This document shows, one piece after another, positions 29,399-62,510 of a stretch of 64,000 bases of DNA. The stretch spans positions 6,101 through 70,100 of the forward strand of contig DATBFX010000341.1 in assembly GCA_036558305.1 (NCBI GenBank). The letters are read 5' to 3'. Position numbers and translations under genes: made by a program. The stretch's first letter is position 1. Each line of letters opens with the position of its first letter. The stretch comes from Thermomicrobiales bacterium (lineage in GTDB: Bacteria > Chloroflexota > Chloroflexia > Thermomicrobiales > UBA6265). The notes under the pieces were generated by a model that saw only the letters and a program-made list of their open reading frames with translations, had not been told where the DNA came from and did not search any database.

Positions 29399-29465
29399 GT
29401 CAGGCGCTAGGCGTTAGGAGAACGAACCGTTTCGTGCGCCTAACGCCTAACGCCTAGCGCCTGAC
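29399..29465 (+). repeat. intercistronic hairpin A with stems of tandem 7-nt units (gcctaac/gcctagc/gcctgac)
   Basis: gtcaggcgctaggcgttagg (29399-29418) is the exact reverse complement of cctaacgcctagcgcctgac (29446-29465). An extra gcctaac unit sits in the 27-nt loop. It starts 3 nt after the E1beta stop and ends 16 nt before the E2 ATG; GGAGG at 29472-29476 lies outside the stem. Confidence 0.9.
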
Positions 29466-29481
29466 GCCTCCGGAGGCCCGT

Positions 29482-30840
29482 ATGCCCACCCAAACGGCGA
29501 CCACGATTACGATGCCGCAACTCGGCGAGAGCGTGACCGAAGGGACGATCGGTGCCTGGCTCAAGCAGGTCGGCGATCGTGTCGAAAAGTACGATCCCCT
29601 GGTCGAGGTCGAAACGGACAAGGTCAACTCCGAGATTCCGTCGCCCGTTGCCGGGGTGCTCGTCGAAATCCTGATCGAGCCGGAGAGTACCGTCCCGGTC
29701 GGCGCCGGGCTGTGTCGGATCGACGAAGCGGGCGAAGGTTCGGTCCCCCCGGCCCCCCAATCCTGGGGGGAGAACGACGACCCGCAGTCTTCAGGGCCAT
29801 TCTCAAGAGCGCGACCCTCCGTCTCCCCCCAGGATTGGGGGGCCGGGGGGGCCGAAGCCGGGGGGGCCGAACCGCCCACCGAACTCGATCTCCTCCGCAC
29901 CCGCTCGTCACCGGCCGTCCGCCGTATTGCGGAAGAGCACGGTCTCGACATCGGCCAGATCGACGGTACCGGCATCGGGGGCCGCGTCACCAAACAGGAC
30001 ATCCTTGCCTACGTTGCCCAGATGCAATCCGCCGCTCCCGCCTCGGTGGAAACGACGGAGCGCGTCGTCGCGGCGCCGCCGGCACCGGCTGCCGTCCAGC
30101 CACCAGAACCGCGAGCGGCCGCGCGTCCCGCAATCCAGCCCTTCCCCGGCGACGAGGTCGTCCCGGTGACGCCGATGCGCCGGCAGATCGCCGAGCACAT
30201 GGTCCGCTCGGAGCGACTGGCGCCGCACGTGACGACGGTGGTCGAGGTCGACATGACCAACGTCGTGGCGTACCGCGCGGCCCGCAAAGAGGACTTTGCG
30301 CGACGGGAGGGAATCGAGCTCAGCTACCTGCCGTTCGCGATCAAGGCCGTCACCCTGGCGCTCCGCGATCACCCGCGGATGAACGCGGTCTGGGACGAAG
30401 AGCGCATCATCCACCGCAACGCGATCCACGTCGGCGTCGCGGTCGGTCTGGAGGACGGTCTGATCGTGCCGGTCGTCAAGCACGCCGATCGCCTCAGCCT
30501 GACCGGTCTGGCGCACGCCGTGGCCGACCTGATTGCCAGGGCCCGCGCCGGTAACCTGACGCCGGACGACGTCACCGGCGGCACCTTCACCGTCAACAAC
30601 CCCGGCACTTTCGGTTCGATTGCCTCCACGCCCATCCTTGTTCAACCCCAGGTTGCCATCCTCTCGACCGAGGCCATCGTCAAACGCCCCGTGGTCGTCG
30701 ACGACATGATCGCGATCCGGTCGATGATGAACCTCTCGCTCAGCTTCGACCATCGCGCCCTCGACGGTCTCGCCGCGGCCCGCTTCCTCCAACGGGTCAA
30801 ACGCTGGCTGGAGGGCGTGGACGACAAGATCGCCGTGTAG
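29482..30840 (+). CDS. 2-oxoacid dehydrogenase E2 component (dihydrolipoamide acyltransferase)
   Basis: Lipoyl domain (VEVETDKVNSEIPSP), PSBD (SSPAVRRIAEEHGLDIGQIDGTGIGGRVTKQDI) and a catalytic domain ending in SFDHRALDG. The linker contains the palindromic element listed separately. Confidence 0.9.
   Translation: MPTQTATTITMPQLGESVTEGTIGAWLKQVGDRVEKYDPLVEVETDKVNSEIPSPVAGVLVEILIEPESTVPVGAGLCRIDEAGEGSVPPAPQSWGENDDPQSSGPFSRARPSVSPQDWGAGGAEAGGAEPPTELDLLRTRSSPAVRRIAEEHGLDIGQIDGTGIGGRVTKQDILAYVAQMQSAAPASVETTERVVAAPPAPAAVQPPEPRAAARPAIQPFPGDEVVPVTPMRRQIAEHMVRSERLAPHVTTVVEVDMTNVVAYRAARKEDFARREGIELSYLPFAIKAVTLALRDHPRMNAVWDEERIIHRNAIHVGVAVGLEDGLIVPVVKHADRLSLTGLAHAVADLIARARAGNLTPDDVTGGTFTVNNPGTFGSIASTPILVQPQVAILSTEAIVKRPVVVDDMIAIRSMMNLSLSFDHRALDGLAAARFLQRVKRWLEGVDDKIAV
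29745..29850 (+). repeat. perfect 29-bp inverted repeat (MITE/REP-like element) embedded in-frame in the E2 linker
   Basis: ccccccggccccccaatcctggggggaga (29745-29773) and tctccccccaggattggggggccgggggg (29822-29850) are exact reverse complements separated by 48 nt. The arms translate as PQSWG and PQDWG. Confidence 0.9.
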
Positions 30841-30941
30841 GACGGGGTTGGTTGGTGGGCACAAGCCGACGATCGCCGCCTGAGCGATGTGAGAATCCCG
30901 CCCCAGCCAGAGACCCCCACGACGAGGGTGTGGGAACGTCA

Positions 30942-31017
30942 CATGGTACCACATCGAAGAAACGGATAGGAGATTCGAATTCTTCGTAGATATTATGGTA
31001 ATTCGCATGGTACCACA
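30942..31017. promoter_or_regulatory. AT-rich island with two copies of CATGGTACCACA (palindromic core TGGTACCA) flanking a small hairpin
   Basis: CATGGTACCACA occurs at 30942-30953 and 31006-31017, centres 64 bp apart. Between them cgaagaa (30955-30961) pairs with ttcttcg (30980-30986). The element lies in a ~650 bp gap with no convincing ORF. Its function is unknown. Confidence 0.4.
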
Positions 31018-31489
31018 GCCATGCCGCGCCAAATAGGCATAATTGCCTAATTGGCACTCCTGTATTCCGCGATACACGACCGCCGCATCGGCAATGCTCG
31101 CGATGCCCCGCCGACGCGGTTCCCTATGCTGGGAGACCGGTCAGCGAACAGACCGGGGATCGGGACCACACCCATTGTCCGCCGGAGCGAATCGCCAATG
31201 GGTGCGTACCGGGGTGCGCACCGGAGAACGCGTCTCACTCAAGGGGTCGAACTCGCGATCACGAATGGTGTCACGCCCACCGGCCGGTGGTGGTGGCCGA
31301 ATGATCTGTTCGCGTTCCGGCATCGTACTATGCAGAGGGTTGGTGTGTAGAAAGGAGGATGCAGTTCTCGGTTCGATGAGGCCGGCCGTCGTCGAGATGG
31401 CGACGATCCCGCCGAGCCCCGCGGCGGCCAACTGACGCCGGTCCGATGGCGCGACACCGCCGACGAGATAGACACGAGAGGGAAAGCCA

Positions 31490-33109
31490 ATGATTCGGTT
31501 CAACCATTGCCGTGCGATCGTCTTCGCTGTCGTAGCGCTATGTCTATCACCAGTTCTTATGCAGACACACCCAGCCGTGGCCCAGGACCGCCCTGTCCTC
31601 CGCTTCGGCACCAATGCCGCCGATCTCTCGACCCTCGATCCCCACTACGCCTCCGGCACGCAGGACCGAACCGTCGTCGACATGCTCTTCAACGCGCTGG
31701 TCCGCTTCAAACCCGGCGACGCCTCGGTGATCGAACCGGATCTGGCAACCGCCGTCCCGGAACCGGTGATCGAAGGCGGGAAGCAGACCTGGACTTTCAC
31801 CCTCCGCGACGGGGTCGTGTGCCACCCGTGGGAGGGCGGAGAAGCCTATCCGCTGACGGCGGACGACGTGGTCTTCTCGCTTCAAAAGTCGGCGAATAAG
31901 GACAGCTCCGGGTATGCGGCCGACTACGCGGGGATGACGGTTGCCAAGGTCGACGACAAGATCGTCAAGATCACGATGGACGCTCCCCTCTCGCCGACCC
32001 TCTTCCTGCCGAAAGTCGCCAACTACAACGGCGGTTTCATCGTCTGCGCCAAGGCCGTCGAAGCACTCGGGCTCGACGGGTTCAAGACCCACCCGGTCGG
32101 CACCGGACCGTTTGTGTTCCAGTCCTACACCCCGCAGACCAGCGTCATCCTCACCGCCAACGACAACTACTTCCGCGGCGCGCCGAAACTCGGCGGGGTG
32201 GAAGTCCGCTACATGCCGGATGCGACGAGCCGCGAGCTGGCGCTCCAATCGGGCGAGTTGGATGCCGCGTCGGGCGTCAACGAGGCCCAGTGGGTCGACC
32301 GCATCAACGGCGAGGGCACGCTCAAGGCCGACGTCTTCGGTCCCGGCGAGGTCGCCTGGGTCAACCTGAACGTCACCAACCAGTACCTGTCCAAACCGCA
32401 GGTTCGCCAGGCGATCGCCTACGCCATCGACCGTGAGGAGCACCAGGCGCTCTACGGGTCGCCCGTCTCCGAAATCGTCTATTCGGTGGTACCGGCCTCG
32501 CTGATGCCGGGCGGGTTGACCCAGGAACAGGCCACCGCCGCTGGCGTTGACTATCCCCACAACATCGAGAAGGCCAAGCAACTGCTCACCGAGGCGGGGT
32601 ATCCAGACGGGTTCGAGATGACCCTGGTCACCAGCGAGATGCCGGCCTACCGCTCCAACTACGAAGTCCTCCAATCCGAACTGGCGAAGATCGGGATCAA
32701 GATCGACCTCCAGGTGGTCGATCATGCCACGATGCACGCCCAGATCCGGGAGGACGTCAACCCGATCGTGATCTACGTCGCGTACCGGCCGAATGCCGAC
32801 GTGTACCTGACCCAGTTCTTCTACTCGCCGTCGATCGTCGTGTCCGGCGCCTCGCCGGTGACCAACTTCAGCCACTACGGCGCGATCGACGACCTGATCC
32901 TCCAGGCCCGCGGCGAGACCGATCCCGCCGCGCAGGAAGAACTCTGGCGTCAGGCGAACACCCAGATCCTGAAGGACGTCGCCGCGATTCCGCTTCAGTA
33001 CCAGAATCAGGTCTACGCGCGCAATCCCAAGGTCGACTACGGACACGAGTTGGTCAAAGTCCTCGCCCTCTACCCGGGCATCGACGAAACGACCACGATC
33101 GCGTCGTAA
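31490..33109 (+). CDS. ABC transporter substrate-binding protein, family 5 (peptide/nickel type)
   Basis: Signal peptide MIRFNHCRAIVFAVVALCLSPVLMQTHPAVAQ. SBP_bac_5 pattern LRFGT...LDPHYA...NALVRFKPGD. Confidence 0.88.
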   Translation: MIRFNHCRAIVFAVVALCLSPVLMQTHPAVAQDRPVLRFGTNAADLSTLDPHYASGTQDRTVVDMLFNALVRFKPGDASVIEPDLATAVPEPVIEGGKQTWTFTLRDGVVCHPWEGGEAYPLTADDVVFSLQKSANKDSSGYAADYAGMTVAKVDDKIVKITMDAPLSPTLFLPKVANYNGGFIVCAKAVEALGLDGFKTHPVGTGPFVFQSYTPQTSVILTANDNYFRGAPKLGGVEVRYMPDATSRELALQSGELDAASGVNEAQWVDRINGEGTLKADVFGPGEVAWVNLNVTNQYLSKPQVRQAIAYAIDREEHQALYGSPVSEIVYSVVPASLMPGGLTQEQATAAGVDYPHNIEKAKQLLTEAGYPDGFEMTLVTSEMPAYRSNYEVLQSELAKIGIKIDLQVVDHATMHAQIREDVNPIVIYVAYRPNADVYLTQFFYSPSIVVSGASPVTNFSHYGAIDDLILQARGETDPAAQEELWRQANTQILKDVAAIPLQYQNQVYARNPKVDYGHELVKVLALYPGIDETTTIAS

Positions 33110-33113
33110 CGGA

Positions 33114-33219
33114 GGCGGCAAGGCGGCAAGGCGGCGAGGCGGCAAGGACGATAAGAGACCGACGGACAGCTCCCGGATTCCTATTCCCTGTTCCCTTGCC
33201 GCCTTGCCGCCTTGCCGCC
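33114..33219 (+). repeat. intercistronic hairpin B: (GGCGGCAA)x4 - loop - (TTGCCGCC)x3
   Basis: Left arm 33114-33147 is ggcggcaaggcggcaaggcggcgaggcggcaagg. Right arm 33194-33219 is ccttgccgccttgccgccttgccgcc. About 22 bp can pair perfectly. It starts 5 nt after the SBP stop and ends 14 nt before the permease ATG. Confidence 0.9.
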
Positions 33220-33233
33220 TCGATTGAACTCCT

Positions 33234-34175
33234 ATGCTCAGACACATCGTCCGACGGCTGCTGCTGGCGATACCGACCCTGCTGGCGGTCTTCACCATCA
33301 TTTTCGTCGTCGTTCGGGTCGCTCCTGGCGACCCGGCGACGGCCGTGCTCGGCGACAACGCGTCCAAGCAGGCGGTCGATGCGCTGCGCGAGCGGATGGG
33401 ACTCAACGAACCGCTCTGGAAGCAGTACCTGACCTTCCTTGCCGACCTCTCACGTGGCGATCTCGGGAAATCACTGAAAACCGGTCAGCCGGTCTGGTAT
33501 CAGATCCGATCCGCTTTGCCCCACACGCTGGAGCTCACCTTCGCCGCCATCTCGATCGGGCTGGCGATCGGCGTGCCGATCGGGGTCGTCACCGCCGTCC
33601 AGCGCAACCGCGCGCCCGACTACATCGGCCGCGTCGTCTCCCTCGTCGGTCTCTCGCTGCCGGCGTTCTACCTGGCCGTTCTGCTGATCTACTTCTTCGC
33701 TGTCAAGGTGAGTTGGTTCCCGGCCGTCGGCGCCCCGCCGCTCTCCGATCTCGGCGCCAATCTGCATCACCTCGTCCTCCCGGCCGTCACCCTCGGGTTG
33801 ATCGAAATGGCCTACATCGCCCGCATGACCCGCTCGGTGATGATCGCCGTCCTCAGCGACGACTACGTAAGGACGGCGCGAGCGAAGGGACTCCGGGAAT
33901 GGGTTGTCCTGGTCAGACACGCCCTGCGGGCCGGGTTGATCCCGATCGTCTCCCTCGTCGGCATCTTCGCGATCAGCTTGATCGGATCGTCGGTCCTGGT
34001 GGAGGAGGTCTTCGCCCGACCGGGGCTCGGCAAGCTGATGGTCGGCGCGACCAAGCAGAAGGACTACACGTCGTTGCAGTCGATCATGGTGGTCTACGCC
34101 TGCATCATCGTCGTCATCAACCTGATTACCGACATCCTCTATACGGCGATCGACCCGCGGGTTCGCTACTCGTGA
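33234..34175 (+). CDS. ABC transporter permease (DppB/OppB-like)
   Basis: MLRHIVRRLLLAIPTLLAVFTIIFVVVRVAPGDP. EAA-loop region YVRTARAKGL. Confidence 0.9.
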   Translation: MLRHIVRRLLLAIPTLLAVFTIIFVVVRVAPGDPATAVLGDNASKQAVDALRERMGLNEPLWKQYLTFLADLSRGDLGKSLKTGQPVWYQIRSALPHTLELTFAAISIGLAIGVPIGVVTAVQRNRAPDYIGRVVSLVGLSLPAFYLAVLLIYFFAVKVSWFPAVGAPPLSDLGANLHHLVLPAVTLGLIEMAYIARMTRSVMIAVLSDDYVRTARAKGLREWVVLVRHALRAGLIPIVSLVGIFAISLIGSSVLVEEVFARPGLGKLMVGATKQKDYTSLQSIMVVYACIIVVINLITDILYTAIDPRVRYS

Positions 34176-34212
34176 TCCCCGGAGTCGGCTGGGGGCGGAG
34201 GAGGGCCCGTCG

Positions 34213-35112
34213 ATGAGCGAATCGGCCGTCTCAAGCGGTGATTTGACCGGCACAGGCCGGCAGACCGACTACATCTCGGGTGGTCGGCGGGCGCTGCGGA
34301 CGTTCGCCCGCAACCGCACCGCAGTCGTCGGCGTCGGACTCATCTCGCTCCTCCTCCTGGTTGCCATCGCCGCGCCGCTCATCGCCCCCCACCACCCGCT
34401 CGACCAGAGTGTCCGCAACCGACTTGCCCCGCCGAGCGCGGACTACCCGCTCGGCCGCGACGACAAGGGACGCGACATCCTGTCGCGGGTGATCTTCGGG
34501 ACGCGGATCGCGCTCCAGGTCGGGGTCTTCTCGGTCCTCCTCGGCGGTGTGCTCGGTACCCTGATCGGTCTCACCGCCGCGTTCTTCGGCGGCAAGACCG
34601 ACGGCGCCCTGATGCGGTTGACCGATGTCCTCCTCTCCTTTCCCGACCTGATCACCGGTCTGCTCGTCCTCGCCGTCCTCGGTCCCGGTCTTTCCAAGAT
34701 GATCGTCGCCATCGGCTTGACCATCGCGCCTCGCTTCTCGCGAATCTCCTACGGATCGGCTCTTTCCCTGATGCGGCGCGACTTCGTCGACGCCGCCCGC
34801 ACGATCGGGGTCGGCAACTCGCGCATCCTGCGCGTCCACCTTTTGCCGAACGTCCTCGGGGAACTGCTGGTCTTCGGCAGTCTCTGGACCGCGTCGGCGA
34901 TCCGCCTCGAAGCCAGCCTCAGTTTCATCGGGCTCGGCGTTCAGCCGCCCACGCCGACCTGGGGTCAGATGATCCGCGAAGGCACACTCTACCTGACGAC
35001 CGTTCCCTGGTACTCGCTCGGCCCTGGTCTGGCGCTTTTGCTCGCCGTTCTCGCTTTCAACCTCGCCGGCGACGGGCTGCGTGACGCCCTCGATCCCCGG
35101 TCACGGTCCTGA
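34213..35112 (+). CDS. ABC transporter permease (DppC/OppC-like)
   Basis: GLISLLLLVAIAAPLIAPHHP, PLGRDDKGRDILSRVIFG and FVDAARTIGV. Confidence 0.9.
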   Translation: MSESAVSSGDLTGTGRQTDYISGGRRALRTFARNRTAVVGVGLISLLLLVAIAAPLIAPHHPLDQSVRNRLAPPSADYPLGRDDKGRDILSRVIFGTRIALQVGVFSVLLGGVLGTLIGLTAAFFGGKTDGALMRLTDVLLSFPDLITGLLVLAVLGPGLSKMIVAIGLTIAPRFSRISYGSALSLMRRDFVDAARTIGVGNSRILRVHLLPNVLGELLVFGSLWTASAIRLEASLSFIGLGVQPPTPTWGQMIREGTLYLTTVPWYSLGPGLALLLAVLAFNLAGDGLRDALDPRSRS

Positions 35113-36366: not shown

Positions 36367-36621
36367 TCATTCCTCGGGTGCGGGCGTGGCAATGACCGGG
36401 TGCATCCGCACGTTCGTTGCCAAGCGCAAACCCGCCGGAACCAGGATCGAGATTGCGCCGAGGGATGGGCCTGTGCACCCCAAGGCTGGTACCACCTGAG
36501 GGACGAACAGCCATCGACTTCGGTTGGGCAACCGGAGTACGTCAGTCCGGAAGGTTGGTAGCCCACGTGTCGCAAACCGTAATAGCGCAGCGTTGACACT
36601 CTTGGTCTAGGGCAACGTTCA

Positions 36622-43166: not shown

Positions 43167-43178
43167 TTCCGTTTGAGA

Positions 43179-43322
43179 GGCGGCAAGGCGGCAAGGCGGG
43201 AACCCGCCAGAGCGGGTGATGGCGGCAAGGATTTTCGAGCGGGCACCCAGTTCTGGCGCTCAATAGGCTCAATCATCCTTCGACCACTCCCCGCCGCCTT
43301 GCCGCCTTGCCGCCTTGCCGCC
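43179..43322 (-). repeat. intercistronic hairpin C: same GGCGGCAA/TTGCCGCC unit as hairpin B
   Basis: Plus-strand ggcggcaaggcggcaaggcgg (43179-43199) pairs over 21 bp with ccgccgccttgccgccttgccgccttgccgcc (43291-43322). A third ggcggcaagg at 43221-43230 allows an alternative pairing. In the sense of the minus-strand genes the element begins at the SBP stop and ends 12 nt before the permease ATG. Confidence 0.9.
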
Positions 43323-45007
43323 TACGACTCCACCCAAACGTCGTTGTACTGCGGGTAGAGCATCGTTTGCGTCGGCATCCAGCCGTGCACCTTCTTGTGG
43401 TTGACCCAGATCGCGTTCGAGGTCACCAGCGGAATCTTCGGCACTTGCTCGGCCCAGATCAACTGGGCCTTGCTCGCCGCGGCCTTGAGCTCCTCGTCGC
43501 TGCCGGCCTTCTGCCAGTCGTCGAAGGCCTTCAACAAATTGGGGATACCGCCGCTGTACTCCATGCTCGGGACGATCGAGTTGAAGAGCAGGATCACGTC
43601 CATCGGCGAGGACCAGAGCCACTCGTAGCCGAACGAATCGGGTGGGGAATCCTTGCTGTTGAGTTTGGTTCCGAATTCGGGATTCTGGTAACTCTCGACC
43701 TTCATGTCGGCGCCGACCTTCGCCAGCATACCGGCGACCGCCTCGCTGATCTGGGCGCCGAACGTCTGTCCGGACCAGTTCAAGTGCGTCCAGGAGAGCT
43801 TGACGCCGTTCTTGGCGCGGATCCCGTCCGAACCCTTCGCCCAGCCCTGGTCGTCGAGCATCTTGTTGGCGAGATCGAGGTCGAACTTGTTGAACTGCTC
43901 GACACCCGGGTCGTACCACTTCCAGTTGGACGCGATCGGTCCTTGCGTGGCGACCGCGTGACCGAAGTAGATCGCCTTGACGAGTCCTTCACGGTCGATT
44001 GCGTGGGAAATTGCCTGGCGCACCGCCAACTGGTCGAATTCCAGGTCCTTGCGCAGCCAGTTCAACGCAAGGAACGAGTTCGCCGGGTTCGCCCACTCCT
44101 GGACAACGAGATCGGGATTGCCCTTGAGGCGGTCGACGTCCTGCCCCGCCGGGTTCTTGATCGCGTCGACGTCGCCGGCTTCCATCTCATTCGCTCGGTT
44201 CGCCGCCTCGACGATCGGCACCCACTTCAACTCGTCGATGTAGGCCGGTCCCTTATTCTGGATGAACGGGCAGGCGGTACCCGGATAATCCGCCCACTTC
44301 GCCATGCGAACCTGACTACCGGGTGTAAATTCCGTCAGGGTGAACGGACCGGTGCCGTCTGCCGTCGTGGCGCCGTAGGTGTCGCCGGCAGCGGCGCGGG
44401 CGGCCTGGTTGTGGATCATCGAGTACTCGGTCGCCAGGGTCTCCGGGAACGCGGCGAACGGGTGCGCCATGGTCACGATCACCGTGTTGCCGTCGCCGGC
44501 TTTGACATCGGTGACGGTATTCCAGAAGATGGCGTTCTGACCGGTCTTGGGATCGCGGAACAGGTCGAAGTCCTCGACCACGTTCGCGTTGGTGCAGGGC
44601 GTGCCCGAGTGGAACTTCAATCCGTCCCGGATCTTGATTGTCCAGGTCAAGCCGTCGTCGGAGACGGTCCAGGAGTCGGCCAGCGCCGGAACGATCTTAC
44701 CGTCCGGGTCGCGGAGCATCACGTATTCGTAGAGCGCATTGTATCCCGGATCGGCCCAGCCGGAGAGTACCGGGTCCATCTTCGTGAAGTCGCGGTCGTA
44801 CCCTTCGGTGAACGTGCCGCCGGTTTGCGGCGTGTCCTGTGCTGCCGCGAGCCGAGGCGAAGCCGCTGCCAGGAGTGACGCCGCCGCCGGGGCGGAGACG
44901 CCGAGCAGCGCCGCACGCTTGACGAACTCGCGTCGACTCAACCCGGCCCGCCGGTACTCGTCGACCAGAGATCTCAGGCCGGTTCGTGGATCGATCCTGT
45001 CGCTCAC
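43322..45007 (-). CDS. ABC transporter substrate-binding protein, family 5, Tat-type signal
   Basis: LSRREFVKRAALLGVSAPAAASLLAAASPRLAAAQD is a twin-arginine-like leader. The SBP_bac_5 body follows. Confidence 0.88.
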   Translation of the reverse strand: MSDRIDPRTGLRSLVDEYRRAGLSRREFVKRAALLGVSAPAAASLLAAASPRLAAAQDTPQTGGTFTEGYDRDFTKMDPVLSGWADPGYNALYEYVMLRDPDGKIVPALADSWTVSDDGLTWTIKIRDGLKFHSGTPCTNANVVEDFDLFRDPKTGQNAIFWNTVTDVKAGDGNTVIVTMAHPFAAFPETLATEYSMIHNQAARAAAGDTYGATTADGTGPFTLTEFTPGSQVRMAKWADYPGTACPFIQNKGPAYIDELKWVPIVEAANRANEMEAGDVDAIKNPAGQDVDRLKGNPDLVVQEWANPANSFLALNWLRKDLEFDQLAVRQAISHAIDREGLVKAIYFGHAVATQGPIASNWKWYDPGVEQFNKFDLDLANKMLDDQGWAKGSDGIRAKNGVKLSWTHLNWSGQTFGAQISEAVAGMLAKVGADMKVESYQNPEFGTKLNSKDSPPDSFGYEWLWSSPMDVILLFNSIVPSMEYSGGIPNLLKAFDDWQKAGSDEELKAAASKAQLIWAEQVPKIPLVTSNAIWVNHKKVHGWMPTQTMLYPQYNDVWVES

Positions 45008-47038: not shown

Positions 47039-47548
47039 GTGACGGCGGCAACGATCGGGCAGGCGGACGAAACCAGGGAGGGCTGGCGCGGCAAGATCGG
47101 CCTCATGGACCAGCAGGAGATGGACGAGTTCCTGGTGGGCGGCAACCTCGCCCGGCTCGCCGTCCTCGACGACAAGGGCTGGCCCTATGTCCAGCCCGTC
47201 TGGTACCAGTGGGAGCCGAACGAGGGCGTCTTCTGGATCGTCGCCCGCAAGAAAAGCGCGTGGGCTGCCTTCATGCAACGCGACGGCCGCGTCGCCCTCA
47301 CCATCGATGGCGAGACCCGCCCTTATCGCAAAGTCGCCCTCCAGGGTACGGCCGAGGTCATCGAGGAACCGAACGTCGGCGGCGAATGGGTCGAGATTGC
47401 CAATTCGATGGCCACCCGCTACCTCGGCGAACACGGCCCCGACTACATCGTCCCCACTCTCGACAAACCGCGCTGGCTCTTCAAAATCACGCCGACCTCG
47501 CTGGTGACGTGGCAGGGCGTCGATTGGCACTCGCGGTACAAGGAGTAG
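47039..47548 (+). CDS. pyridoxamine 5'-phosphate oxidase family (split-barrel flavin/F420-binding) protein
   Basis: GTG at 47039 after AAAGGAG. MDEFLVGGNLARLAVLDDKGWPYVQPVWY and VALTID...RKVALQGTAEVI match the PPOX-like split barrel. Confidence 0.75.
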   Translation: MTAATIGQADETREGWRGKIGLMDQQEMDEFLVGGNLARLAVLDDKGWPYVQPVWYQWEPNEGVFWIVARKKSAWAAFMQRDGRVALTIDGETRPYRKVALQGTAEVIEEPNVGGEWVEIANSMATRYLGEHGPDYIVPTLDKPRWLFKITPTSLVTWQGVDWHSRYKE

Positions 47549-47690
47549 GCGGACAGACGGACAGACGGACAGACGGACGGACGGAGGACTTATGAACGCC
47601 AACGCAACGACCGACTCAGGTCTAGCACCGGGCAAGGCAGACGCGACTCGTTCTCCGCTGTCCGACTGTCCGTCTGTCCGCCTATCCGTC
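47549..47690 (+). repeat. hairpin D: (GGACAGAC)x4 - loop - (GTCTGTCC-type)x4
   Basis: Left arm gcggacagacggacagacggacagacggacggacgga lies directly after the TAG at 47546-47548. Right arm 47655-47690 is ccgctgtccgactgtccgtctgtccgcctatccgtc. 17 bp pair perfectly, plus 7 more after one mismatch. The annotated ATG at 47592 lies in the loop. Confidence 0.9.
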
Positions 47691-49181
47691 TTGCGTGAGG
47701 GCTTCGACTATCCCTTGAGCCGGCTCGATCCGTTCGGGGCGCACATCGACCCGCCGAGTGTCGCGCTCTACGAGACGATCGTCGTCAAGGGACCGGACGG
47801 AACGGCGCAGCCGGGGCTGGCCGAATCGTGGCAAATCTCGCGAGATGGGCTCGAATGGCGCTTCCGCCTCCGACCGGACGCACCGTTCCACTCGGGCGCA
47901 CCCTGCGACGCCGACGCGGTGGTCGCCGCGCTGGATCCCCTCCGGTACGACCACTTCAGTCCGCGACGCCAACTCTGGTACTGGGATCCGGTGGACACGG
48001 TCCGCGCCGAAGAGACCGACACCGTCGTCTTTACGCTCCATCACCCGTACGTGCGCCTGCCGTCTCTCCTCTGGGGAACCCACACGGCCATCTACAACCA
48101 AACACTTCGCTCGCAGGAACCCGAACGCTTCGGTTACGAACTCGCCGACGGGACCGGGCCGTTCCGATTCGTGAGCTGGTCGAAGGAACGCGTCGTCCTC
48201 GAAAGGTGGGCGGACTACCCCGGTTCGGCGGCTCCGTTCCTCGCGACGGGCGGTCCCGCCAGGCTGGACCGGATCGAATGGACGATGCTGCTCGATCCCG
48301 CGGAGCGCGTCGCGGCGCTGGACCGGGGCGACGTGGACTGCATCCACGGTCCACGTTACGCCGACGTCCCCCGCTTGGAGGCCGACTCGCGCTTCCACGT
48401 CGTCCGGTTCAGCCAGGCCGCGAACGCCTACCTGGCCCTCAACTGGCAGCGCACCGACCTCGGTTTCGATGACGTTCGCGTCCGCCGCGCCATCTCCGCC
48501 GCGATCGACCGCCCCCGTCTCGTCGAGGACGCGCTCCTCGGGTACGGCGTCCCGACCTTCGGTCCGCTCTCACCCGGCGGCGAGTTCTACGATCCCGCCG
48601 TCGAATCCGGTCGCGGCCACGATCCCGCCGCCGCCGGTCGCCTCCTCGACGAAGCCGGTTGGCAACTCGGTGCGGACGGTATCCGATCGAAGGGGGAGGA
48701 ACGCCTCTCCTTCGAGTGCGTGATCCAGGACGACGCGATCCATCAGCAGATCGCGATCGGTCTGCGCGACCAGTTGCGCTCCGTCGGTATCGTCCTCGAT
48801 CTCAGACCGATCCTGACCTTCAGCGGCTTCTACCAGACGGTCGCGAGCGGACCGGCCAGCTTCATCAACAAATGGCTCTGGCAAGACCCGGTCGACGCCG
48901 CGATCGGCTTCACCGCCTCCTGGGGCCGCCCGTTCCCGAACTGGCAGCACGCCGCGATCCCGCGTCTCGACGATGCCTACCGCGCCTGGCTTCAGGCCGA
49001 GACACTGGAAAGCCTCCAGGCCGCAGCGACGCAGGCCCAACTCATCGTTGCCGACGAACTGCCCTATATCCCGCTGCTGGTCCCGCAGGACGTCTGGGTT
49101 CATTCGACCCGCGTCACCGGCTGGGAGCCGGCCCAGGCGATCCTCTACCCGTTCTATCATCGGACCGAGGTGCGCGGGTGA
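47592..49181 (+). CDS. family-5 solute-binding-protein homologue without signal peptide
   Basis: The SBP_bac_5 body starts at LREGFDYPLSRLDPFG...ALYETIVVKGPDG. The 33 residues before it (from the ATG at 47592) are hydrophilic and partly encoded by hairpin D. The TTG at 47691 is an alternative start. Confidence 0.75.
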   Translation: MNANATTDSGLAPGKADATRSPLSDCPSVRLSVLREGFDYPLSRLDPFGAHIDPPSVALYETIVVKGPDGTAQPGLAESWQISRDGLEWRFRLRPDAPFHSGAPCDADAVVAALDPLRYDHFSPRRQLWYWDPVDTVRAEETDTVVFTLHHPYVRLPSLLWGTHTAIYNQTLRSQEPERFGYELADGTGPFRFVSWSKERVVLERWADYPGSAAPFLATGGPARLDRIEWTMLLDPAERVAALDRGDVDCIHGPRYADVPRLEADSRFHVVRFSQAANAYLALNWQRTDLGFDDVRVRRAISAAIDRPRLVEDALLGYGVPTFGPLSPGGEFYDPAVESGRGHDPAAAGRLLDEAGWQLGADGIRSKGEERLSFECVIQDDAIHQQIAIGLRDQLRSVGIVLDLRPILTFSGFYQTVASGPASFINKWLWQDPVDAAIGFTASWGRPFPNWQHAAIPRLDDAYRAWLQAETLESLQAAATQAQLIVADELPYIPLLVPQDVWVHSTRVTGWEPAQAILYPFYHRTEVRG

Positions 49182-49297: not shown

Positions 49298-50092
49298 ATG
49301 GCAGGACCGCGCTTGAGCGGCAGGACGGCGGTCATCACGGGCGGCGGGAGCGGATTCGGCCGGGCAACCGCGCGCCGCTTCGCCGAGGAAGGAGCCTCCA
49401 AAATCGTCCTCGCGGACATCCGCAAGGAGAAAGCGGACGAGGTCAAAGCCGAGGTGGAAGCACTGGGCGCGCAAGCGCTGGCGGCACGATGCGACGTCGG
49501 CGAGGTCGCCGCCTGCGAGAGACTGGTCGAAGACACCCTCACCTTCGTCGACGGCAAACTCGACATCCTCGTCAGCAACGCCGCCCCCTTCCACGGCCCC
49601 GAGTCGTTCCTCGAATTCCGCGACCAGACCTGGTTCGAGGACGTCGCAATCAACCTGACCGCTTCCTATGTCCTGGGTCAGCGTTGCGCCCGCGCGATGG
49701 CCAAGACCGGTGGCGGCGCGATCCTCTACACCACCTCGATCAATTCCCAGGGCGCCGGCGCCGGTTTCGCCTCCTACTGCGCGACCAAGGCCGGCATCGT
49801 CGGACTCCTCCAGGTGATGGCCGTCGAACTCGCCAAATACAACATCCGCGTCAACGCCGTCGGCCCCGGCCCGGCCGACACCCCTCGCTCCGTTCAACTC
49901 GTCGGCGAGGAGACGATGGAGCAATTCCGCAAGAAGTTCCCCGTCGTCCCCCTCAACCGGCTCGCCAGCGCCGATGACGTCGCCAACGCCTTCGTCTACC
50001 TCGCCTCCGACGAAGCCTCGTACGTCACCGGCCAAAACCTTATGGTCTGCGGCGGAGTCACAGCGTACGTCTACAACGTACCGGAGGAGTGA
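49298..50092 (+). CDS. short-chain dehydrogenase/reductase (SDR)
   Basis: AVITGGGSGFGRA (TGxxxGxG), NAAP, and the YCATKAG catalytic Tyr-Lys. ATG after AAAGGAG. Confidence 0.9.
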   Translation: MAGPRLSGRTAVITGGGSGFGRATARRFAEEGASKIVLADIRKEKADEVKAEVEALGAQALAARCDVGEVAACERLVEDTLTFVDGKLDILVSNAAPFHGPESFLEFRDQTWFEDVAINLTASYVLGQRCARAMAKTGGGAILYTTSINSQGAGAGFASYCATKAGIVGLLQVMAVELAKYNIRVNAVGPGPADTPRSVQLVGEETMEQFRKKFPVVPLNRLASADDVANAFVYLASDEASYVTGQNLMVCGGVTAYVYNVPEE

Positions 50093-50154
50093 GACGGACA
50101 GACGGACAGTAGAACGAGCCATTTCCGTCTGTCCGTCTGCCCGTCTGCCCGTCC
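50092..50154 (+). repeat. hairpin E: GGACAGAC-type units
   Basis: agacggacagacgg (50092-50105, starting at the last base of the SDR stop) is the exact reverse complement of ccgtctgtccgtct (50125-50138). The right arm continues gcccgtctgcccgtcc to 50154. The next ATG is at 50175, with GGAG outside the stem. Confidence 0.85.
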
Positions 50155-54970: not shown

Positions 54971-55010
54971 TCGCCGATCACACCCAGCGGAGCACGCGCG
55001 GAGGGCAGAG

Positions 55011-55442: not shown

Positions 55443-55464
55443 GCGGGCGCATCCCAGACGGCGG

Positions 55465-56880: not shown

Positions 56881-56915
56881 GCCAGGTCCTACGATGCTCA
56901 GTCCACTCGGGCTCG

Positions 56916-58193: not shown

Positions 58194-58249
58194 GCTGGCT
58201 CTCCCGACGATGACTCCACCGGGCCATTTGCGCCCGCGCGACCGCGGTG

Positions 58250-58687
58250 TCAGGTGGGAAAGACGAGAAAGAAGTTCACGAGCTTCTTCTTGCCCCAATA
58301 GACGATGCCGAGAAAGCGACCCGGCGACACCTCGCGAATCTCGTCCCTGATCCAGTGCGCGACGAGCGAGGTGCGGGAGTAATCCAGGACGATGCACTCC
58401 TTGCCATCGAACCAACTCTTCTCTTTGTAGACATTGGCCCGAATCGCACGGACGCGGAGTGGCGTTATCTTGTTACGCAGACCTTCGCCGCGGGCGTCGA
58501 ATACCTTGCCCTGCCAGATCAGGAGATGGATCAGCGTCGCGGTCAGGTGCGACAGCCAAGAACCGGGCTGGACGATCGCCGTGCCGTCGGCATCGCCCGT
58601 CGGGACGCGTTCGACACCGCCGTCTCGGAACAGCTCGTCGAGTTGCTGCTGCGACATCGCCGTCAGTTGGGTCGCATCCAACGACAT
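58250..58687 (-). CDS. hypothetical protein, first gene of the DyP operon
   Basis: ATG at 58687 (MSLDATQLTAMSQQQLDELF). Globular composition (WFDGKECIVLDYSRTSLVAHWIRDEIREVSPGRFLGIVYW). No family recall. Confidence 0.55.
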   Translation of the reverse strand: MSLDATQLTAMSQQQLDELFRDGGVERVPTGDADGTAIVQPGSWLSHLTATLIHLLIWQGKVFDARGEGLRNKITPLRVRAIRANVYKEKSWFDGKECIVLDYSRTSLVAHWIRDEIREVSPGRFLGIVYWGKKKLVNFFLVFPT

Positions 58688-58886
58688 TTCGCACCCCGCT
58701 TCTGGATCAACGAGGCTGAGGCACAGCGTTCCGGATTCTCGAACCACCGCGAAGGACGGCAGTATAACGGTCGGTTGGATGCGACACAATGGGTTGGTCG
58801 GCGTCGGCAGGGTCTATGCAAAGTCGCCGTGGTGGCGCTCCGCCGATAGACTGGGGGTGTCCAATCACCGGCTACCGGCGGAGCGC

Positions 58887-59211
58887 ATGGCCAGTAGAGA
58901 GGCCCCGCCGTTGGTCGAGGTGCTCGCCCAGGTTCCCGACGTCCGCTGCGCCCGCGGGAAGCGGCATCCGCTCCAGGCGGTGTTGCCGCTGGCCGGCGTG
59001 GCCATCCTCGGACGTCACCTTCGACGAGGACCGCAGCGCGGTGCGGACCAAGGCCGCGCCCCAGGTCGGTGCCGCCTGCCGCAACCCGGCGATCACCCTG
59101 CTGCGCCGGCTGGGCGCCGCCAATGTCGCCGCTGCCTGCCGCACCTTCGCCGGTCGCCCGCTCACCGCCATCGCCCTCGTCGCCACCGCCGGCTGCCAGG
59201 TGAAGAAATGA
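58887..59211 (+). pseudogene. ISAs1-family transposase remnant (N-terminal ~40 aa fused out of frame to C-terminal ~65 aa)
   Basis: From 58887 one frame reads MASREAPPLVEVLAQVPDVRCARGKRHPLQAVLPLAGVAILG, the ISAs1/H-repeat N-terminal motif VPDPR..RGKRH. From 59011 the +1 frame reads DVTFDEDRSAVRTKAAPQVGAACRNPAITLLRRLGAANVAAACRTFAGRP, the typical ISAs1 C-terminus. The DDE core is missing. Confidence 0.65.
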
Positions 59212-59344
59212 TCCTGGCTCACCGATGAGCAGAAGAGTCGCGCCCTGAGGGCGCTTGATGCGCGGGTGCGGGTCTGGGCATCCGGTCGCGACCCAAGGTA
59301 CGCAATCACGATCTCGCTCGACGGACTGCTGCCGGCTGGCCCCG

Positions 59345-59596
59345 CTAGTGATCTTCGGACGGCAGCCGGTGGCGACCCCGACGGGGCGCGTGCGCGTGGC
59401 TGTAGCCGTCGTGGTTGTGCCAGACGGGGCGGACGTCGCGGGGATCGGCCTTGAAGAGCAACTTCGGCATCGTGTAGACCCGCCGCCCGGCCGAACCGCA
59501 AACCGGACAGAACGCCGGTTCATTCGCCTCGGCCATCGACCGCTCGCGCTCGAAGCGCGCCCCGCAATCGATGCAGCCGTAGTCGTACTTGGGCAC
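59345..59596 (-). CDS. FmdB-family zinc-ribbon protein
   Basis: The GTG at 59596 gives (M)PKYDYGCIDCGARFERERSMAEANEPAFCPVCGS, the FmdB MPxYEYxCxxCG...CPxCG pattern. The longer track ORF 59345..60040 is an over-extension. Confidence 0.75.
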   Translation of the reverse strand: MPKYDYGCIDCGARFERERSMAEANEPAFCPVCGSAGRRVYTMPKLLFKADPRDVRPVWHNHDGYSHAHAPRRGRHRLPSEDH

Positions 59597-59613
59597 GTTC
59601 ACCCCCGACGAGA

Positions 59614-59747
59614 GGAACAGACGGACAGACGGACAGACGGACCAAGTCGACGACGAAGTCGCGATCACGCTTGTTACGACTGACGACCGACGGCTGACGG
59701 CTCTCCCTGTTCCGTCTGCCCGTCTGCCCGTCTGTCCGTCTGCTTCC
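59614..59747 (-). repeat. hairpin F: GGACAGAC-type units, spanning the 3' end of the Fur-family gene
   Basis: Plus-strand ggaacagacggacagacggacagacggacc (59614-59643) pairs with gttccgtctgcccgtctgcccgtctgtccgtctgcttcc (59709-59747), 15 bp perfect plus 7 more. The Fur-family stop (59674-59676) lies in the loop, and arm 59709-59747 is translated as ...KQTDRRADGQTEQ. Confidence 0.88.
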
Positions 59748-60216
59748 GGCAATAGTCGCACTGACCGAACAGCGCCAGGTGATCGACGTTCGCCACGAAT
59801 CCGTATCGTTTGAGAATGCTCTCGCGGAGCGGCTCGACCAAGGCGTCGTCGAGGACGAGCATCCCGCCGCAATCGCGGCAGATGAGGTGGTGGTGACGAC
59901 CGTCGGCGAGGAGTTCGTATTGGCGCACGCCGCCGCCGAGGTCGGTCTCGGAGATGAGCCCGAGATCGCGAAACAACTCGAGCGTCCGGTAGACCGTCGA
60001 CCGGTTCACGGCCGGCGACAGCGGACCGACGCGGGCCCAAACTTCCTCGGCGGTCAGGTGCTCGCCGGGACGTGCGAACGCGCCCAGGATCAACAACCGC
60101 TGCGGTGTCACCCGCTGTCCGACGGCCCGGAGGAGGACCGCCAGTTCTTGCGGCGAGCGCTCCGGTTGCCAGGTCGCCTCCTGCTGCCGATCGATCGCCG
60201 TGTCGTCGCTACCCAC
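59674..60216 (-). CDS. Fur-family metalloregulator (Zur-like by context)
   Basis: RVTPQRLLILGAFARPGEHLTAEEVWARV...NRSTVYRTLELFRDLGLI...HHHLICRDCG...FGQCDYC. The start is uncertain (GTG at 60216 proposed; no in-frame ATG nearby). The last ~20 residues are repeat-encoded. Confidence 0.8.
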   Translation of the reverse strand: MGSDDTAIDRQQEATWQPERSPQELAVLLRAVGQRVTPQRLLILGAFARPGEHLTAEEVWARVGPLSPAVNRSTVYRTLELFRDLGLISETDLGGGVRQYELLADGRHHHLICRDCGGMLVLDDALVEPLRESILKRYGFVANVDHLALFGQCDYCRKQTDRRADGQTEQGEPSAVGRQS

Positions 60217-60327
60217 CGGATGAGTCCTTTTGACGCCGCGTTCGGCGGCGTATCGCACACGACACGAAGCGTACCACGCCCCCTTGACCGCTCCCCCGTC
60301 GTCACCTAAGATGCGGGCGCGCGTTGT

Positions 60328-60341
60328 TGCGACAATTCGCA
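60328..60341. promoter_or_regulatory. inverted repeat TGCGA-CAAT-TCGCA in the divergent Fur-family/metal-ABC promoter region (candidate Fur/Zur box)
   Basis: tgcgacaattcgca at 60328-60341, followed by the AT-richer tctgcatgttttgtacgtt. It lies ~60 nt upstream of the proposed TTG start of the binding protein. Assigned by position only. Confidence 0.35.
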
Positions 60342-60400
60342 TCTGCATGTTTTGTACGTTACTCTTTGCCCCATTGGACAGCACCGACAGGAGCTTCACC

Positions 60401-61456
60401 TTGCCTATCGAGACGCTTTCCCGTCGCACCCTGATCGGCGCCGCCGCGTCGCTGGTTGCTCTCGCACGGCTCGCCGGTCGGGTTGGTCGAGTCGCCGCCC
60501 AGGACGCCACCCCTACCGCGCCCACGTCCTCCCTCGGCTGGAGCGACTCATTTGACGACGACAACGGCAAACTCAACGTTGCCACCACCGTCGCGCCGAT
60601 CAGCTCGATCGTGCGCAACGTCGGCGGCACCCGCATCGACCTCCACGGCATCATCCCCGACGGTACCGACTCCCACACCTTCGAACCCGCGCCGTCCGAC
60701 GCCAAGATCCTCTCCAAAGCCGACCTCGTGATCGTCAACGGACTCCACCTGGAGCAACCGACCGTCGACCTCGCCCAGGCAAACCTGAAGGACGGCGCCC
60801 AGATCTATCAACTCGGCGAGAACACCATCACCGAAGACCAGTGGATCTACGACTTCTCCTTTCCCAAGGAGAAGGGCGATCCCAACCCGCACCTCTGGAT
60901 GAATGTCCCCTTCGCGATGAACTACGCCAAGCTCGCCCAGCAATGGCTGGCCGAGCGCGACCCCACAAATGCCGATTACTACCAGCAAAACCTCGACCGC
61001 TACCTCGCCGTCCTCACCCAACTCGACAACGGCATCATGCAGTCGGTGCAGACGATCCCCGAAGGCAACCGTAAACTCCTCACCTACCACGACGCCTACG
61101 CCTACTTCGCCCAGCACTACGGCATGACCGTCATCGGCGCCGCCCAGCCCTCAGACTTCTCCGAACCGTCGCCGCAAGAGGTTGCCGCGCTGATCGACCA
61201 GATCAAGCAGGAGCACGTCCCGGCCGTGTTCGGCTCCGAAGTCTTCCCGAGCACCGTCCTCGAACAGATCGCCAAAGAGGCCGGCGCCAAGTACATCGAC
61301 AAGATGCGCGACGACGAGCCTCCCGGCGACCCCGGCGACCCCGACCACACCTACGTCGGCATGATGCTGATGGACATGTCGCTGATGATCCCCGCCCTCG
61401 GCGGCACCATCAACGCCCTCGCCGGCATCGAACCCTGGGACACGTACGTGCCGTGA
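60401..61456 (+). CDS. metal ABC transporter substrate-binding protein (ZnuA/TroA, cluster 9 family)
   Basis: TTG at 60401, 7 nt after AGGAG (60389-60393), gives (M)PIETLSRRTLIGAAASLVALARL, a Tat-like leader. VATTVAPISSIVRNVGG, HTFEPAPSD, NPHLWMN and YHDAYAYF are TroA-fold motifs. No His-rich loop, so Zn versus Mn is undecided. Confidence 0.82.
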   Translation: MPIETLSRRTLIGAAASLVALARLAGRVGRVAAQDATPTAPTSSLGWSDSFDDDNGKLNVATTVAPISSIVRNVGGTRIDLHGIIPDGTDSHTFEPAPSDAKILSKADLVIVNGLHLEQPTVDLAQANLKDGAQIYQLGENTITEDQWIYDFSFPKEKGDPNPHLWMNVPFAMNYAKLAQQWLAERDPTNADYYQQNLDRYLAVLTQLDNGIMQSVQTIPEGNRKLLTYHDAYAYFAQHYGMTVIGAAQPSDFSEPSPQEVAALIDQIKQEHVPAVFGSEVFPSTVLEQIAKEAGAKYIDKMRDDEPPGDPGDPDHTYVGMMLMDMSLMIPALGGTINALAGIEPWDTYVP

Positions 61457-61566
61457 GGCAAAAGGCGGAAGGGATCTGACACCGGCCACCTACTTGCGTC
61501 TCAAGGAGTAACGGATGGATGCCGAGATGACACCAGACGCGAACGACGTGCTCTTGGCCGCCCAAA

Positions 61567-61591
61567 GCTCGAAGCTCGAAGCTCGAAGCTC
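61567..61591 (+). repeat. tandem heptamer (GCTCGAA)x3.5 abutting the ATPase start codon
   Basis: gctcgaagctcgaagctcgaagctc ends one base before the ATG at 61592. I found no reverse-complement partner nearby. Confidence 0.8.
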
Positions 61592-62443
61592 ATGACTTCT
61601 CACGCCATTCACCTCCAGCAGGTCTCCTGCGCGTACGACGCAACGGCGGTCTTGCGCGACGTTTCGCTCCGGGTGACCCCCGGTCAATTCGTCGGCATGA
61701 TCGGCCCGAGCGGCGCCGGCAAGACGACACTACTGCGCACGATGCTCGGACTGGTGCCGCGGGTCGATGGCGAGGTCGTCGTCGGTGGTCGACCCGTCGC
61801 ACCGGGACGGCCACCGGCCGGCGTCGGTTACGTCCCGCAAGTCGAGACGGTCGATTGGGGATTCCCGGTCAGCGTCGAAAACGTCGTCCTGATGGGCAAG
61901 GTCGGTCGGATGGGACCCTGGCCCTGGCCGAGCCGGGGCGACCGGCGCGAGGTCGCCGAAACGCTGGAGCGGCTCGGCATCGGCAAACTCGGCCACCGGC
62001 ACATCCGCGACCTGTCGGGTGGACAACAGCAACGGACGTTTCTTGCCCGCGCCCTGATCGGTCGCCCTCGGATCCTGTTCCTCGACGAACCGACCGCCAG
62101 CGTCGATATCAAGACCCGCGACGACATCCTCCACCTGCTCGCCCACCTCAACCGCGACGACGGCGTCACCACCGTCATGACCACCCACGAACTCAACACC
62201 GTCGCCGCTCACCTCCCCTGGGTCGTCTGCGTCAACGCCGGTGTCGTCGCCCAGGGTCCGCCGAGCACCGTCTTCACCGGGCCAATTCTCTCCCGCACCT
62301 TCGGCACCGAGATGCGGGTGATCCGCGACCTCGAAACCGGCAACCTCCTCGTCGCCGAAGCGGGGACGCACGGGCCGTTTTCGAGTCGTCAGTCGTCAGT
62401 CGTCAGTCGTCAGTTGCAGACGGGCGACTCGTCGGCCGCCTAG
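61592..62443 (+). CDS. metal ABC transporter ATP-binding protein (ZnuC-like)
   Basis: Walker A GPSGAGKTT, signature LSGGQQQR, Walker B LFLDEP. The C-terminal tail SSRQSSVVSRQLQ is encoded by hairpin H. Confidence 0.9.
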   Translation: MTSHAIHLQQVSCAYDATAVLRDVSLRVTPGQFVGMIGPSGAGKTTLLRTMLGLVPRVDGEVVVGGRPVAPGRPPAGVGYVPQVETVDWGFPVSVENVVLMGKVGRMGPWPWPSRGDRREVAETLERLGIGKLGHRHIRDLSGGQQQRTFLARALIGRPRILFLDEPTASVDIKTRDDILHLLAHLNRDDGVTTVMTTHELNTVAAHLPWVVCVNAGVVAQGPPSTVFTGPILSRTFGTEMRVIRDLETGNLLVAEAGTHGPFSSRQSSVVSRQLQTGDSSAA

Positions 62444-62510
62444 AAGGAGACTCCGACTATGCGCATTCTTGCCTGCAACGACTATCGACTGACGACTGAC
62501 GACTGACGAC
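62385..62510 (+). repeat. hairpin H: (GTCGTCA)x4 - loop - (GACTGAC)x3-4
   Basis: 62385-62409 is the exact reverse complement of 62486-62510 (25 bp). A second 7-bp pairing joins gttgcag (62413-62419) and ctgcaac (62473-62479). The left arm lies inside the ATPase coding end (stop 62441-62443). The right arm ends 4 nt before the permease ATG at 62515. Confidence 0.9.

Follow-up and report, generated by a model that had tools for sequence, protein, structure and literature searches.

What are the long, periodic hairpins that lie between neighbouring genes in a 64,000-nt stretch of a soil Thermomicrobiales genome assembled from a metagenome (contig DATBFX010000341.1; the whole stretch is called the window below), and do they act on the transcripts that contain them? 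An initial annotation had described seven such loci, with stems built from tandem units of 7 or 8 nt, and had suggested either an RNA-level role or a polar mobile element. We find that the elements are paired, long simple-sequence repeat arrays of 7-8-nt units, arranged around a non-conserved spacer and nearly filling the non-coding gap in which they lie.

Paired repeat arrays in the window

Tandem Repeats Finder (TRF), together with a separate lag-match scan of the window, detected 12 tandem arrays of period 7 or 8, as against a mean of 0.05 and a maximum of 1 in 100 shuffles. The arrays were confined to the seven loci, all of which were found within 0-4 nt of their annotated positions, and to one extra site, locus G below. 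Those called by TRF have a period of 7 or 8, 2.2-4.9 copies and 88-100% match, and the arms of the inverted repeats (22-37 nt) are 86-100% complementary. The architecture (unit)n-loop-(complementary unit)n that had been proposed is a real family, common to all seven loci, and G is the only one-armed locus of the eight. At least four unit families occur within 35 kb (GGACAGAC, GGCGGCAA, GGCGTTA, GTCGTCA and AAGCTCG), and none contains a GGG tract. The loci are listed with the predicted free energy of the RNA fold (dG, in kcal/mol) and its z-score against dinucleotide shuffles (200 per element); SBP stands for substrate-binding protein.

A, 29399-29469, plus strand: hairpin in the E1beta-to-E2 gap; stem 21 bp, loop about 18 nt; 5' arm GTCAGGC/GCTAGGC/GTTAGG, 3' arm (CGCCTAA)n/CGCCTGA; dG -50.1, z -4.9
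B, 33112-33221, plus strand: hairpin in the SBP5-to-permease gap; (GGCGGCAA)x4.4 against (TTGCCGCC)x3.4; dG -81.9, z -9.4
C, 43178-43323, minus strand: hairpin in the second SBP5-to-permease gap; unit as in B, GGCGGCAA/TTGCCGCC; dG -95.6, z -7.0
D, 47547-47691, plus strand: hairpin between a PNPOx-like and an SBP5-like gene; (GGACAGAC)x4.5 against a GTCTGTCC-type arm; dG -82.9, z -7.5
E, 50092-50153, plus strand: hairpin between an SDR and an alpha/beta-hydrolase gene; GACGGACAGACGGACAG against (CCGTCTGY)x3.6; stem 15 bp; dG -38.3, z -3.5
F, 59617-59743, minus strand: hairpin between a Fur/Zur gene and a gene for an FmdB zinc-ribbon protein; GGACAGAC-type arms; dG -79.9, z -5.7
G, 61565-61591, plus strand: one-armed array (AAGCTCG)x3.9 in the znuA-to-znuC gap, abutting the znuC ATG; absent from the initial annotation
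H, 62384-62511, plus strand: hairpin in the ZnuC-to-ZnuB gap; (AGTCGTC)x4.4 against (CGACTGA)x3.7; stem 24-28 bp; dG -81.4, z -8.6

The minimum free energies of the seven hairpins span -38 to -96 kcal/mol, with z-scores of -3.5 to -8.6 (up to -9.4 for B), and only 0-1 of the 200 shuffles folded as well as the real sequence; array-free gaps of the window gave z-scores between -1.7 and +1.2. All seven are thus stable beyond dinucleotide shuffles. Pfam verified the flanking genes (E1beta-E2, SBP5-permease twice, PNPOx-like-SBP5-like, SDR-hydrolase, Fur-FmdB and ZnuC-ZnuB), in agreement with the gene contexts assigned earlier. The elements are also real in independent assemblies: contigs from other samples, 99.7-100% identical to the window, carry A, B, F, G and H with zero indels across them. 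Five short-read contigs of other samples (L110, L111, L113, L114 and L116) terminate within hairpin H, at 62424-62481, as is expected where de Bruijn assembly breaks at an inverted repeat; such hairpins fragment short-read metagenome assemblies.

The elements had been placed between cistrons, which does not hold strictly for D, F and H, where they overlap open reading frames (ORFs) or starts. In A-E the 5' arm begins at most 3 nt from the upstream stop codon, and in C, D and E it overlaps that stop. The Shine-Dalgarno sequence (SD; GGAGG) and ATG of E2 are located after the stem of A, and the hydrolase gene downstream of E also has an SD of its own. B starts 3 nt past a TAA stop and ends 12 nt ahead of the permease ATG, with no SD, and C has a perfect outer stem of 22 bp enclosing a structured loop of 93 nt. 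The stop overlapped by the 5' arm of D is a TAG; the loop of D contains GGAGGA and an ATG (47592) that shares the frame of the SBP5-like ORF downstream, of which the 3' arm may therefore form a coding part. At F and H it is the upstream ORF that runs into the 5' arm: the Fur ORF continues through it and ends at a TGA in the loop, while ZnuC crosses it and stops at TAG 62441-62443. The hairpins give ORFs longer or substitute ends, as in Fur and ZnuC and possibly in the SBP-like gene, which matters for the annotation of high-GC soil metagenome-assembled genomes (MAGs). The loop of F holds, at 59676-59699, a mini-array of H-type units (ACGACTG x3.4) with about 91% identity to the arms of H.

Two mini-ORFs accompany the znu elements. 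G lies within one of 26 codons (61515-61595), which has the SD AAGGAG and a TGA overlapping the znuC ATG. In the loop of H, AAGGAG and the ATG at 62459 open a second one of 15 codons (62459-62506), which ends 8 nt before the znuB ATG (62515); znuB itself has no SD. The SD and ATG thus lie upstream of the array in G and within the loop in H, as they do in D. In the relative L117, whose ZnuC is 87% identical, mini-ORFs stand at 1113-1177 and 2037-2075; their position is kept and the peptide is not.

Across the window, Rfam covariance models gave no match at the gathering threshold, and a scan for tRNA and tmRNA found none. No T-run follows the 3' arm of any element on direct reading, as had been noted earlier, and a terminator scan placed no element among its terminator-like sites, whose frequency equalled chance. 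We dropped the intrinsic-terminator reading for lack of a U-tract and of any match in that scan.

Turnover of units and order of the arms

At the orthologous gaps of relatives the architecture is kept while the unit differs, both arms having altered together. The Zur-to-FmdB gap (F) carries GGACAGAC in the window and GGAGAGAC/GGGAAGAC in L101; the E1beta-to-E2 gap (A) carries GGCGTTA/GCCTAAC in the window and GTCGTCA/GACGACT in L125 and L126. At the znuA-to-znuC gap (G), the AAGCTCG of the window is replaced by a two-armed GCCGCAA/GCCTCAA element in L117, by GAGAAGT/TCTCACT in L100 and L105, and by AGCTGAG/GCTATCA in L103. Presence, unit and unit copy number all vary between relatives. L125 and L126, 99.44% identical over 7.7 kb, differ by a sole indel in the 5' arm, 28 nt long (4 x 7), which supports the earlier suggestion that the stems could change length by slippage, here by whole units; of their 14 single-nucleotide differences, 3 fall in the loop of about 70 nt. 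Between the znuA-to-znuC hairpins of L100 (2658-2713, AAAGAACGACGAAAA) and L105 (740-800, TTTTCGTCGTTCTTT) the 15-nt loop is exactly reverse-complemented. H is conserved in L117, its arms better than its loop. Another relative, whose ZnuB shows no less than 90% identity, has a znuC of 259 aa that overlaps znuB, so that by gene coordinates only there is no gap and H is absent; H appears to behave as an insertion or expansion that lengthened ZnuC here by 24 codons.

The loops have no common origin that we could detect: BLAST of loops against one another and against the window gave chance matches of 7-13 nt only, those shared by loops being 7-9 nt long, apart from the H-type mini-array in the loop of F. 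B and C share a unit, yet their SBPs are only 27% identical, on which ground inheritance of the pair through operon duplication was rejected. The concerted change of units, the 28-nt step, the inversion of a loop and the unrelatedness of the loops together speak against copies of a transposable element and favour local slippage combined with arm-to-arm templating or recombination.

The earlier claim was that, despite their distribution over both strands, the seven elements all point the same way with respect to transcription. Such uniformity is automatic, because the reverse complement of X-loop-X' is X-loop'-X'; it follows from the geometry of inverted repeats and says nothing about transcription. 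True transcriptional polarity is lacking: the sense and antisense RNAs fold equally stably, G-U pairs (28 and 24, respectively) are not enriched in the sense RNA, and the copy numbers of the upstream and downstream arms show no consistent asymmetry. Sense and antisense stability and G-U counts, taken as a test for selection on the transcribed strand, thus showed no difference. The consensus G-N-C-T-N-N-C that had been proposed for the downstream arm does not survive either, since the units agree mostly at the level of chance. Only GCCTGAC of A and GACTGAC of H are close (distance 1, null p ~0.016), and the distances of all other unit pairs match the null.

The absence of the elements from convergent and divergent gaps is correct for the window but fails as a rule. 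The window has 28 gaps that measure 60 nt or more, and 21 of them are co-directional, so that 8 of 8 co-directional loci (A-H) correspond to p ~0.1. In other genomes, 30 classifiable paired-array hairpins comprised 19 in co-directional, 7 in convergent and 4 in divergent gaps, against a background of 47:13:15, all of these counts being approximate, as are the gene calls from which gap types were taken. One such hairpin lies in a divergent gap of another Thermomicrobiales genome.

The arms do, however, differ in a way that does not depend on the strand. Among 51 paired-array hairpins (those of the window and of the loci fetched from other genomes), 38 have the G-rich arm on the 5' side, 4 have it on the 3' side and 9 are neutral. 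Outside the window, for arrays that were not ascertained by the search pattern, the ratio is 20:4 (p = 0.0015), and counted by genome it is 22:2 (24 genomes with a majority either way). The G-first order is thus a real, strand-independent asymmetry. Within the window A-E are G-first (GC skew 0.25-0.45), while F (0.12) and H (0.06) are near-neutral, F being purine-first (0.46); the exceptions cluster among nearly unskewed units such as CAGCCGT. An extension of coding-strand purine skew into the gap was rejected as the cause, because 3 of 4 divergent-gap hairpins are also G-first. The bias, seen in 22 of 24 genomes, is a simple regularity that current models of bacterial repeats leave unexplained.

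Further forms of these repeats were seen in other genomes. L085, from the Thermomicrobiales MAG BP_591, has a nested hairpin at 3905-4075 (CAGCCGT outer and GATAAGC inner arms) and, at 5885-6075 in a divergent gap, a CAGCCGT hairpin with a one-armed GTCTGTCC array in its loop; the C-rich arm is 5' in both. One-armed heptamer arrays lie just past stop codons elsewhere in Thermomicrobiales, such as AGCTCCA x8.1 at 4734-4790 of L124 and GGCAGCA x2.7 at 11824-11842 of L121. A scan of species genomes for the GGACAGAC pattern was dominated by Gemmatimonadales MAGs, whose intergenic DNA is packed with arrays of related units, often forming hairpin arms. The loops of array hairpins in several of these MAGs (L010, L018, L023, L035 and L040) often hold a further dispersed repeat (GTCATCCCGAGCG...GAGTCGAGGGATCT), in some cases as two copies in inverted orientation.

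A palindrome of a different kind lies in frame inside the E2 gene (29482-30840). It occupies 118 nt (29739-29856) of the linker between the lipoyl and E3-binding domains, with arms of 35 nt that are 97% complementary, an RNA dG of -101.6 and two CCCCCC-loop-GGGGGG modules. Both modules are present in L125 (4320-4500), where the loop of module 1 reads AGGATT (PQDWG) as against AATCCT (PQSWG) in the window; the difference is a hairpin-loop inversion within coding sequence and, like the inverted loop of L100 and L105, speaks for recombination of arms at the DNA level. Unrelated to the repeats, a 749-aa ORF at 50980-53229 matches the family of animal haem peroxidases (Pfam E = 1.6e-108), which is uncommon in bacteria.

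What the hairpins might do

The comparison of relatives suggests a function best at the gap of element B, and there is no comparable support at the other loci. In three relatives (P0023, P0027 and P0038, with permeases 80-83% identical) this gap is always 121-167 nt long. It is free of arrays there and holds unrelated, ordinary hairpins, with z-scores of -3.6 to -4.9 and none of 200 shuffles as stable. A strongly structured spacer between SBP and permease is therefore conserved at this gap, with the array hairpin supplying the structure in this genome. In E. coli a structure at the 3' end protects and stabilizes the binding-protein cistron of ABC-transporter operons, with malE-malF as the classic example, and the structured gap found here resembles the malE-malF protective stem-loop (PMC5927463). 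An RNA-level role, which had been proposed for all the elements, is thus plausible at SBP-to-permease gaps, where structure is kept, although the sense strand shows no special signature.

The explanation that we favour, and to which we give about an even chance of being right, is that slippage-generated paired repeat arrays act on operon mRNA in the manner of protective stem-loops of the repetitive extragenic palindromic (REP) type. Each locus would gain and lose whole units by replication slippage, while selection for pairing, or else templating or recombination between the two arms, would maintain their complementarity, and the unit sequence would thereby drift jointly in both arms. Arrays are found in every type of intergenic gap, and their location inside operons throughout this window is happenstance. 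In polycistronic mRNA the stems of 15-28 bp would form an intercistronic stem-loop like those of REPs and bacterial interspersed mosaic elements (BIMEs), which would impede 3'-to-5' exonucleases and whose longest stems might also be cut by RNase III. The flanking cistrons would thereby become independent of each other in stability and translation, allowing, for example, more binding protein than permease.

Several observations weigh against this explanation. The effect on RNA is deduced from folding and comparison, and the equality of sense and antisense folds and of G-U counts gives no pointer to selection on the transcribed strand. G has a single arm, L117 differs from the window by three uncompensated substitutions in the arms, and H seems to be dispensable in a close relative. 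Neither F, G nor H shows length polymorphism among strains that are 99.7-100% identical, and slippage at the population level was therefore rejected for these loci; assembly error is a conceivable source of the 28-nt difference between L125 and L126. Nor does slippage by itself account for the sharing of units by unlinked loci or for the G-first bias.

The main rival, less probable in our estimate but a serious one, is that the arrays are functionless by-products, i.e. neutral or mildly selfish products of slippage and hairpin-templated mutation that accumulate where non-coding DNA tolerates them. The fast turnover of presence, absence and unit sequence would be expected of such products, as would a spread over gap types in proportion to their availability (19:7:4 against 47:13:15), the lack of a sense-strand G-U bias, the absence of H from the close relative with overlapping znuC and znuB, and loops that evolve about 30 times faster than their flanks (L125 and L126). 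However, the SBP-to-permease gap is strongly structured even in array-free relatives, so a hairpin appears to be wanted there. The G-first ratio of 38:4 calls for selection or a directional mechanism, and the arms are more conserved than the loops between the window and L117.

A broader and clearly more speculative proposal, which we consider improbable though worth stating, takes periodic-stem hairpins to be a cross-phylum class (Chloroflexota, Gemmatimonadota, Xanthomonas and possibly Actinobacteria). As length-tunable elements they would renew themselves by slippage and arm-to-arm templating, with the G-first order imposed by selection on transcripts. The C-rich arm would then be paired as it emerges in either direction of transcription, blocking the loading of Rho, and the G-first order would keep an SD-like purine array from directly preceding a start codon. 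Such an element would determine how stable the segments of an operon are relative to one another, or how they are processed, and could be retuned in steps of 7-8 nt.

Translational coupling is unlikely as a general function. On this account the loop exposes the SD and start of a mini-ORF, whose translation melts the 3' arm and feeds ribosomes to an SD-less start. The AAGGAG and ATG of G and H are indeed positionally conserved between the window and L117 despite changed surroundings, and their mini-ORFs end either overlapping the next start or 8-11 nt before it. The loop of D has GGAGGA and an ATG, and no SD precedes the genes that follow B, C, G and H. Yet the loops of A, B, C and E contain no SD-bearing start codon, and the B permease start lacks an SD in array-free relatives as well. 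An arm such as (GACTGAC)n gives a stop in every frame, which makes an end near the start weak evidence, and hairpins are present in convergent and divergent gaps too.

Slightly less likely still is a function at the level of DNA, with the arrays serving as binding sites for a multimeric protein or adopting a non-B form (G-quadruplex, i-motif or cruciform) with effects on replication, nucleoid structure or transcription. Periodic units would fit cooperative binding, the G-first bias is strand-independent, and the GGGAATC repeats of Xanthomonas form G-quadruplexes in vitro (PMC4692102). The units here, with GG at most, could form only weak two-tetrad quadruplexes, and several unrelated units in one genome argue against a single sequence-specific binder. 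Long loops disfavour cruciform extrusion from duplex DNA, and those of the elements (14-96 nt) are unfavourable to it.

Least likely by our reckoning is the mobile element suggested at the outset, a hairpin resembling MITEs (miniature transposable elements with inverted repeats) or REPINs (hairpin-forming REP pairs) and spread by a transposase such as RAYT: it would explain the unit common to unlinked loci (B/C and D/E/F), and the abundance of GGACAGAC arrays across many Gemmatimonadales MAGs and the REP-like extragenic siting agree with it, but different loci have unrelated loops, neither fixed ends nor array-independent terminal inverted repeats nor target-site duplications are present, arm length varies in whole units, the element persists at orthologous gaps while its unit changes, and the SBPs beside B and C share only 27% identity. 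MITE membership was rejected because BLAST of the loops found no shared internal sequence, and no transposase was found among the 20 of about 53 window proteins that were scanned against Pfam.

Relation to known repeat classes

The elements had not been recognized at first as a described class of repeat. Pairs of convergent heptamer arrays have, however, already been reported in Xanthomonas (PMC4692102), and the elements are a variant of this known but poorly understood class, with the GGGAATC arrays of Xanthomonas as the closest. Heptameric simple sequence repeats (SSRs), including convergent inverted pairs, comprise GGGAATC in Xanthomonas and GGGGA(C/T)T in Nostoc (Rehm et al. 2015, PMC4692102). 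The Xanthomonas arrays are 89-93% intergenic, lie between aligned ORFs in 65-70% of cases and often abut the upstream stop; with a genomic GC content of 65%, each genome has 70-75 convergent array pairs that could form stem-loops. The length and sequence of the arrays differ between close species while the type of pair is kept (PMC4692102).

Like these arrays, the elements described here consist of tandem 7-nt units, are intergenic, lie near an upstream stop and are paired on opposite strands in a high-GC genome. The pairs termed convergent in Xanthomonas (PMC4692102) have the same G-first arrangement; the bias quantified here is new relative to that description. Whereas Xanthomonas has one dominant unit with a G3 tract that is capable of forming a G-quadruplex, here several unrelated 7- and 8-nt units have GG at most. 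The hosts belong to Chloroflexota (Thermomicrobiales) and also to Gemmatimonadota, and two unit families can be nested, as in L085 and the loop of F.

Among prokaryotic SSRs with units of 5-11 nt, heptamers are the most over-represented; they are distributed sporadically over the phylogeny, and an origin by slippage has been proposed (Mrazek et al. 2007, as summarized in PMC4679880 and PMC4692102). Our elements fall in the same class of unit size and change length in unit steps, but they pair into hairpins, whereas that survey, as summarized, concerns single arrays, with no mention of hairpin pairing in the summaries. The TAACTGA repeats of Beggiatoaceae and cyanobacteria and the STRR heptamers are intergenic, with 7-nt-step indels between strains, and many end a few nucleotides from a start codon (MacGregor 2015, PMC4679880). 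TAACTGA arrays are almost always one-armed (1 of 170 inverted), are oriented to the downstream gene and have one unit across phyla (PMC4679880). Only element G, which ends at the znuC ATG, and the znuB array of L103 resemble this type in being one-armed and close to a start codon, in contrast to the seven two-armed hairpin loci.

Intrinsic terminators likewise place a GC-rich stem-loop downstream of a stop codon, but they have a short stem, a loop of 3-8 nt and a U-tract, whereas the elements have stems of 15-28 bp, loops of up to 96 nt and no U-tract. The REP, BIME and REPIN sequences of Enterobacteria and Pseudomonas have one imperfect palindrome per genome, short stems and RAYT as a partner (PMC5927463, PMC3116915). 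Membership of this group was rejected for the elements, which have differing unit families, unrelated loops and no single conserved palindrome; their stems are periodic, whereas REPs have no internal periodicity. The two resemble each other as extragenic hairpins within operons, classically between binding-protein and permease genes, with a predicted protection of 3' ends and a differential stability of cistrons. If the RNA-level explanation is true, the paired arrays would be a second, independently evolved answer to the REP task of setting cistron ratios, one that could be retuned faster, unit by unit.

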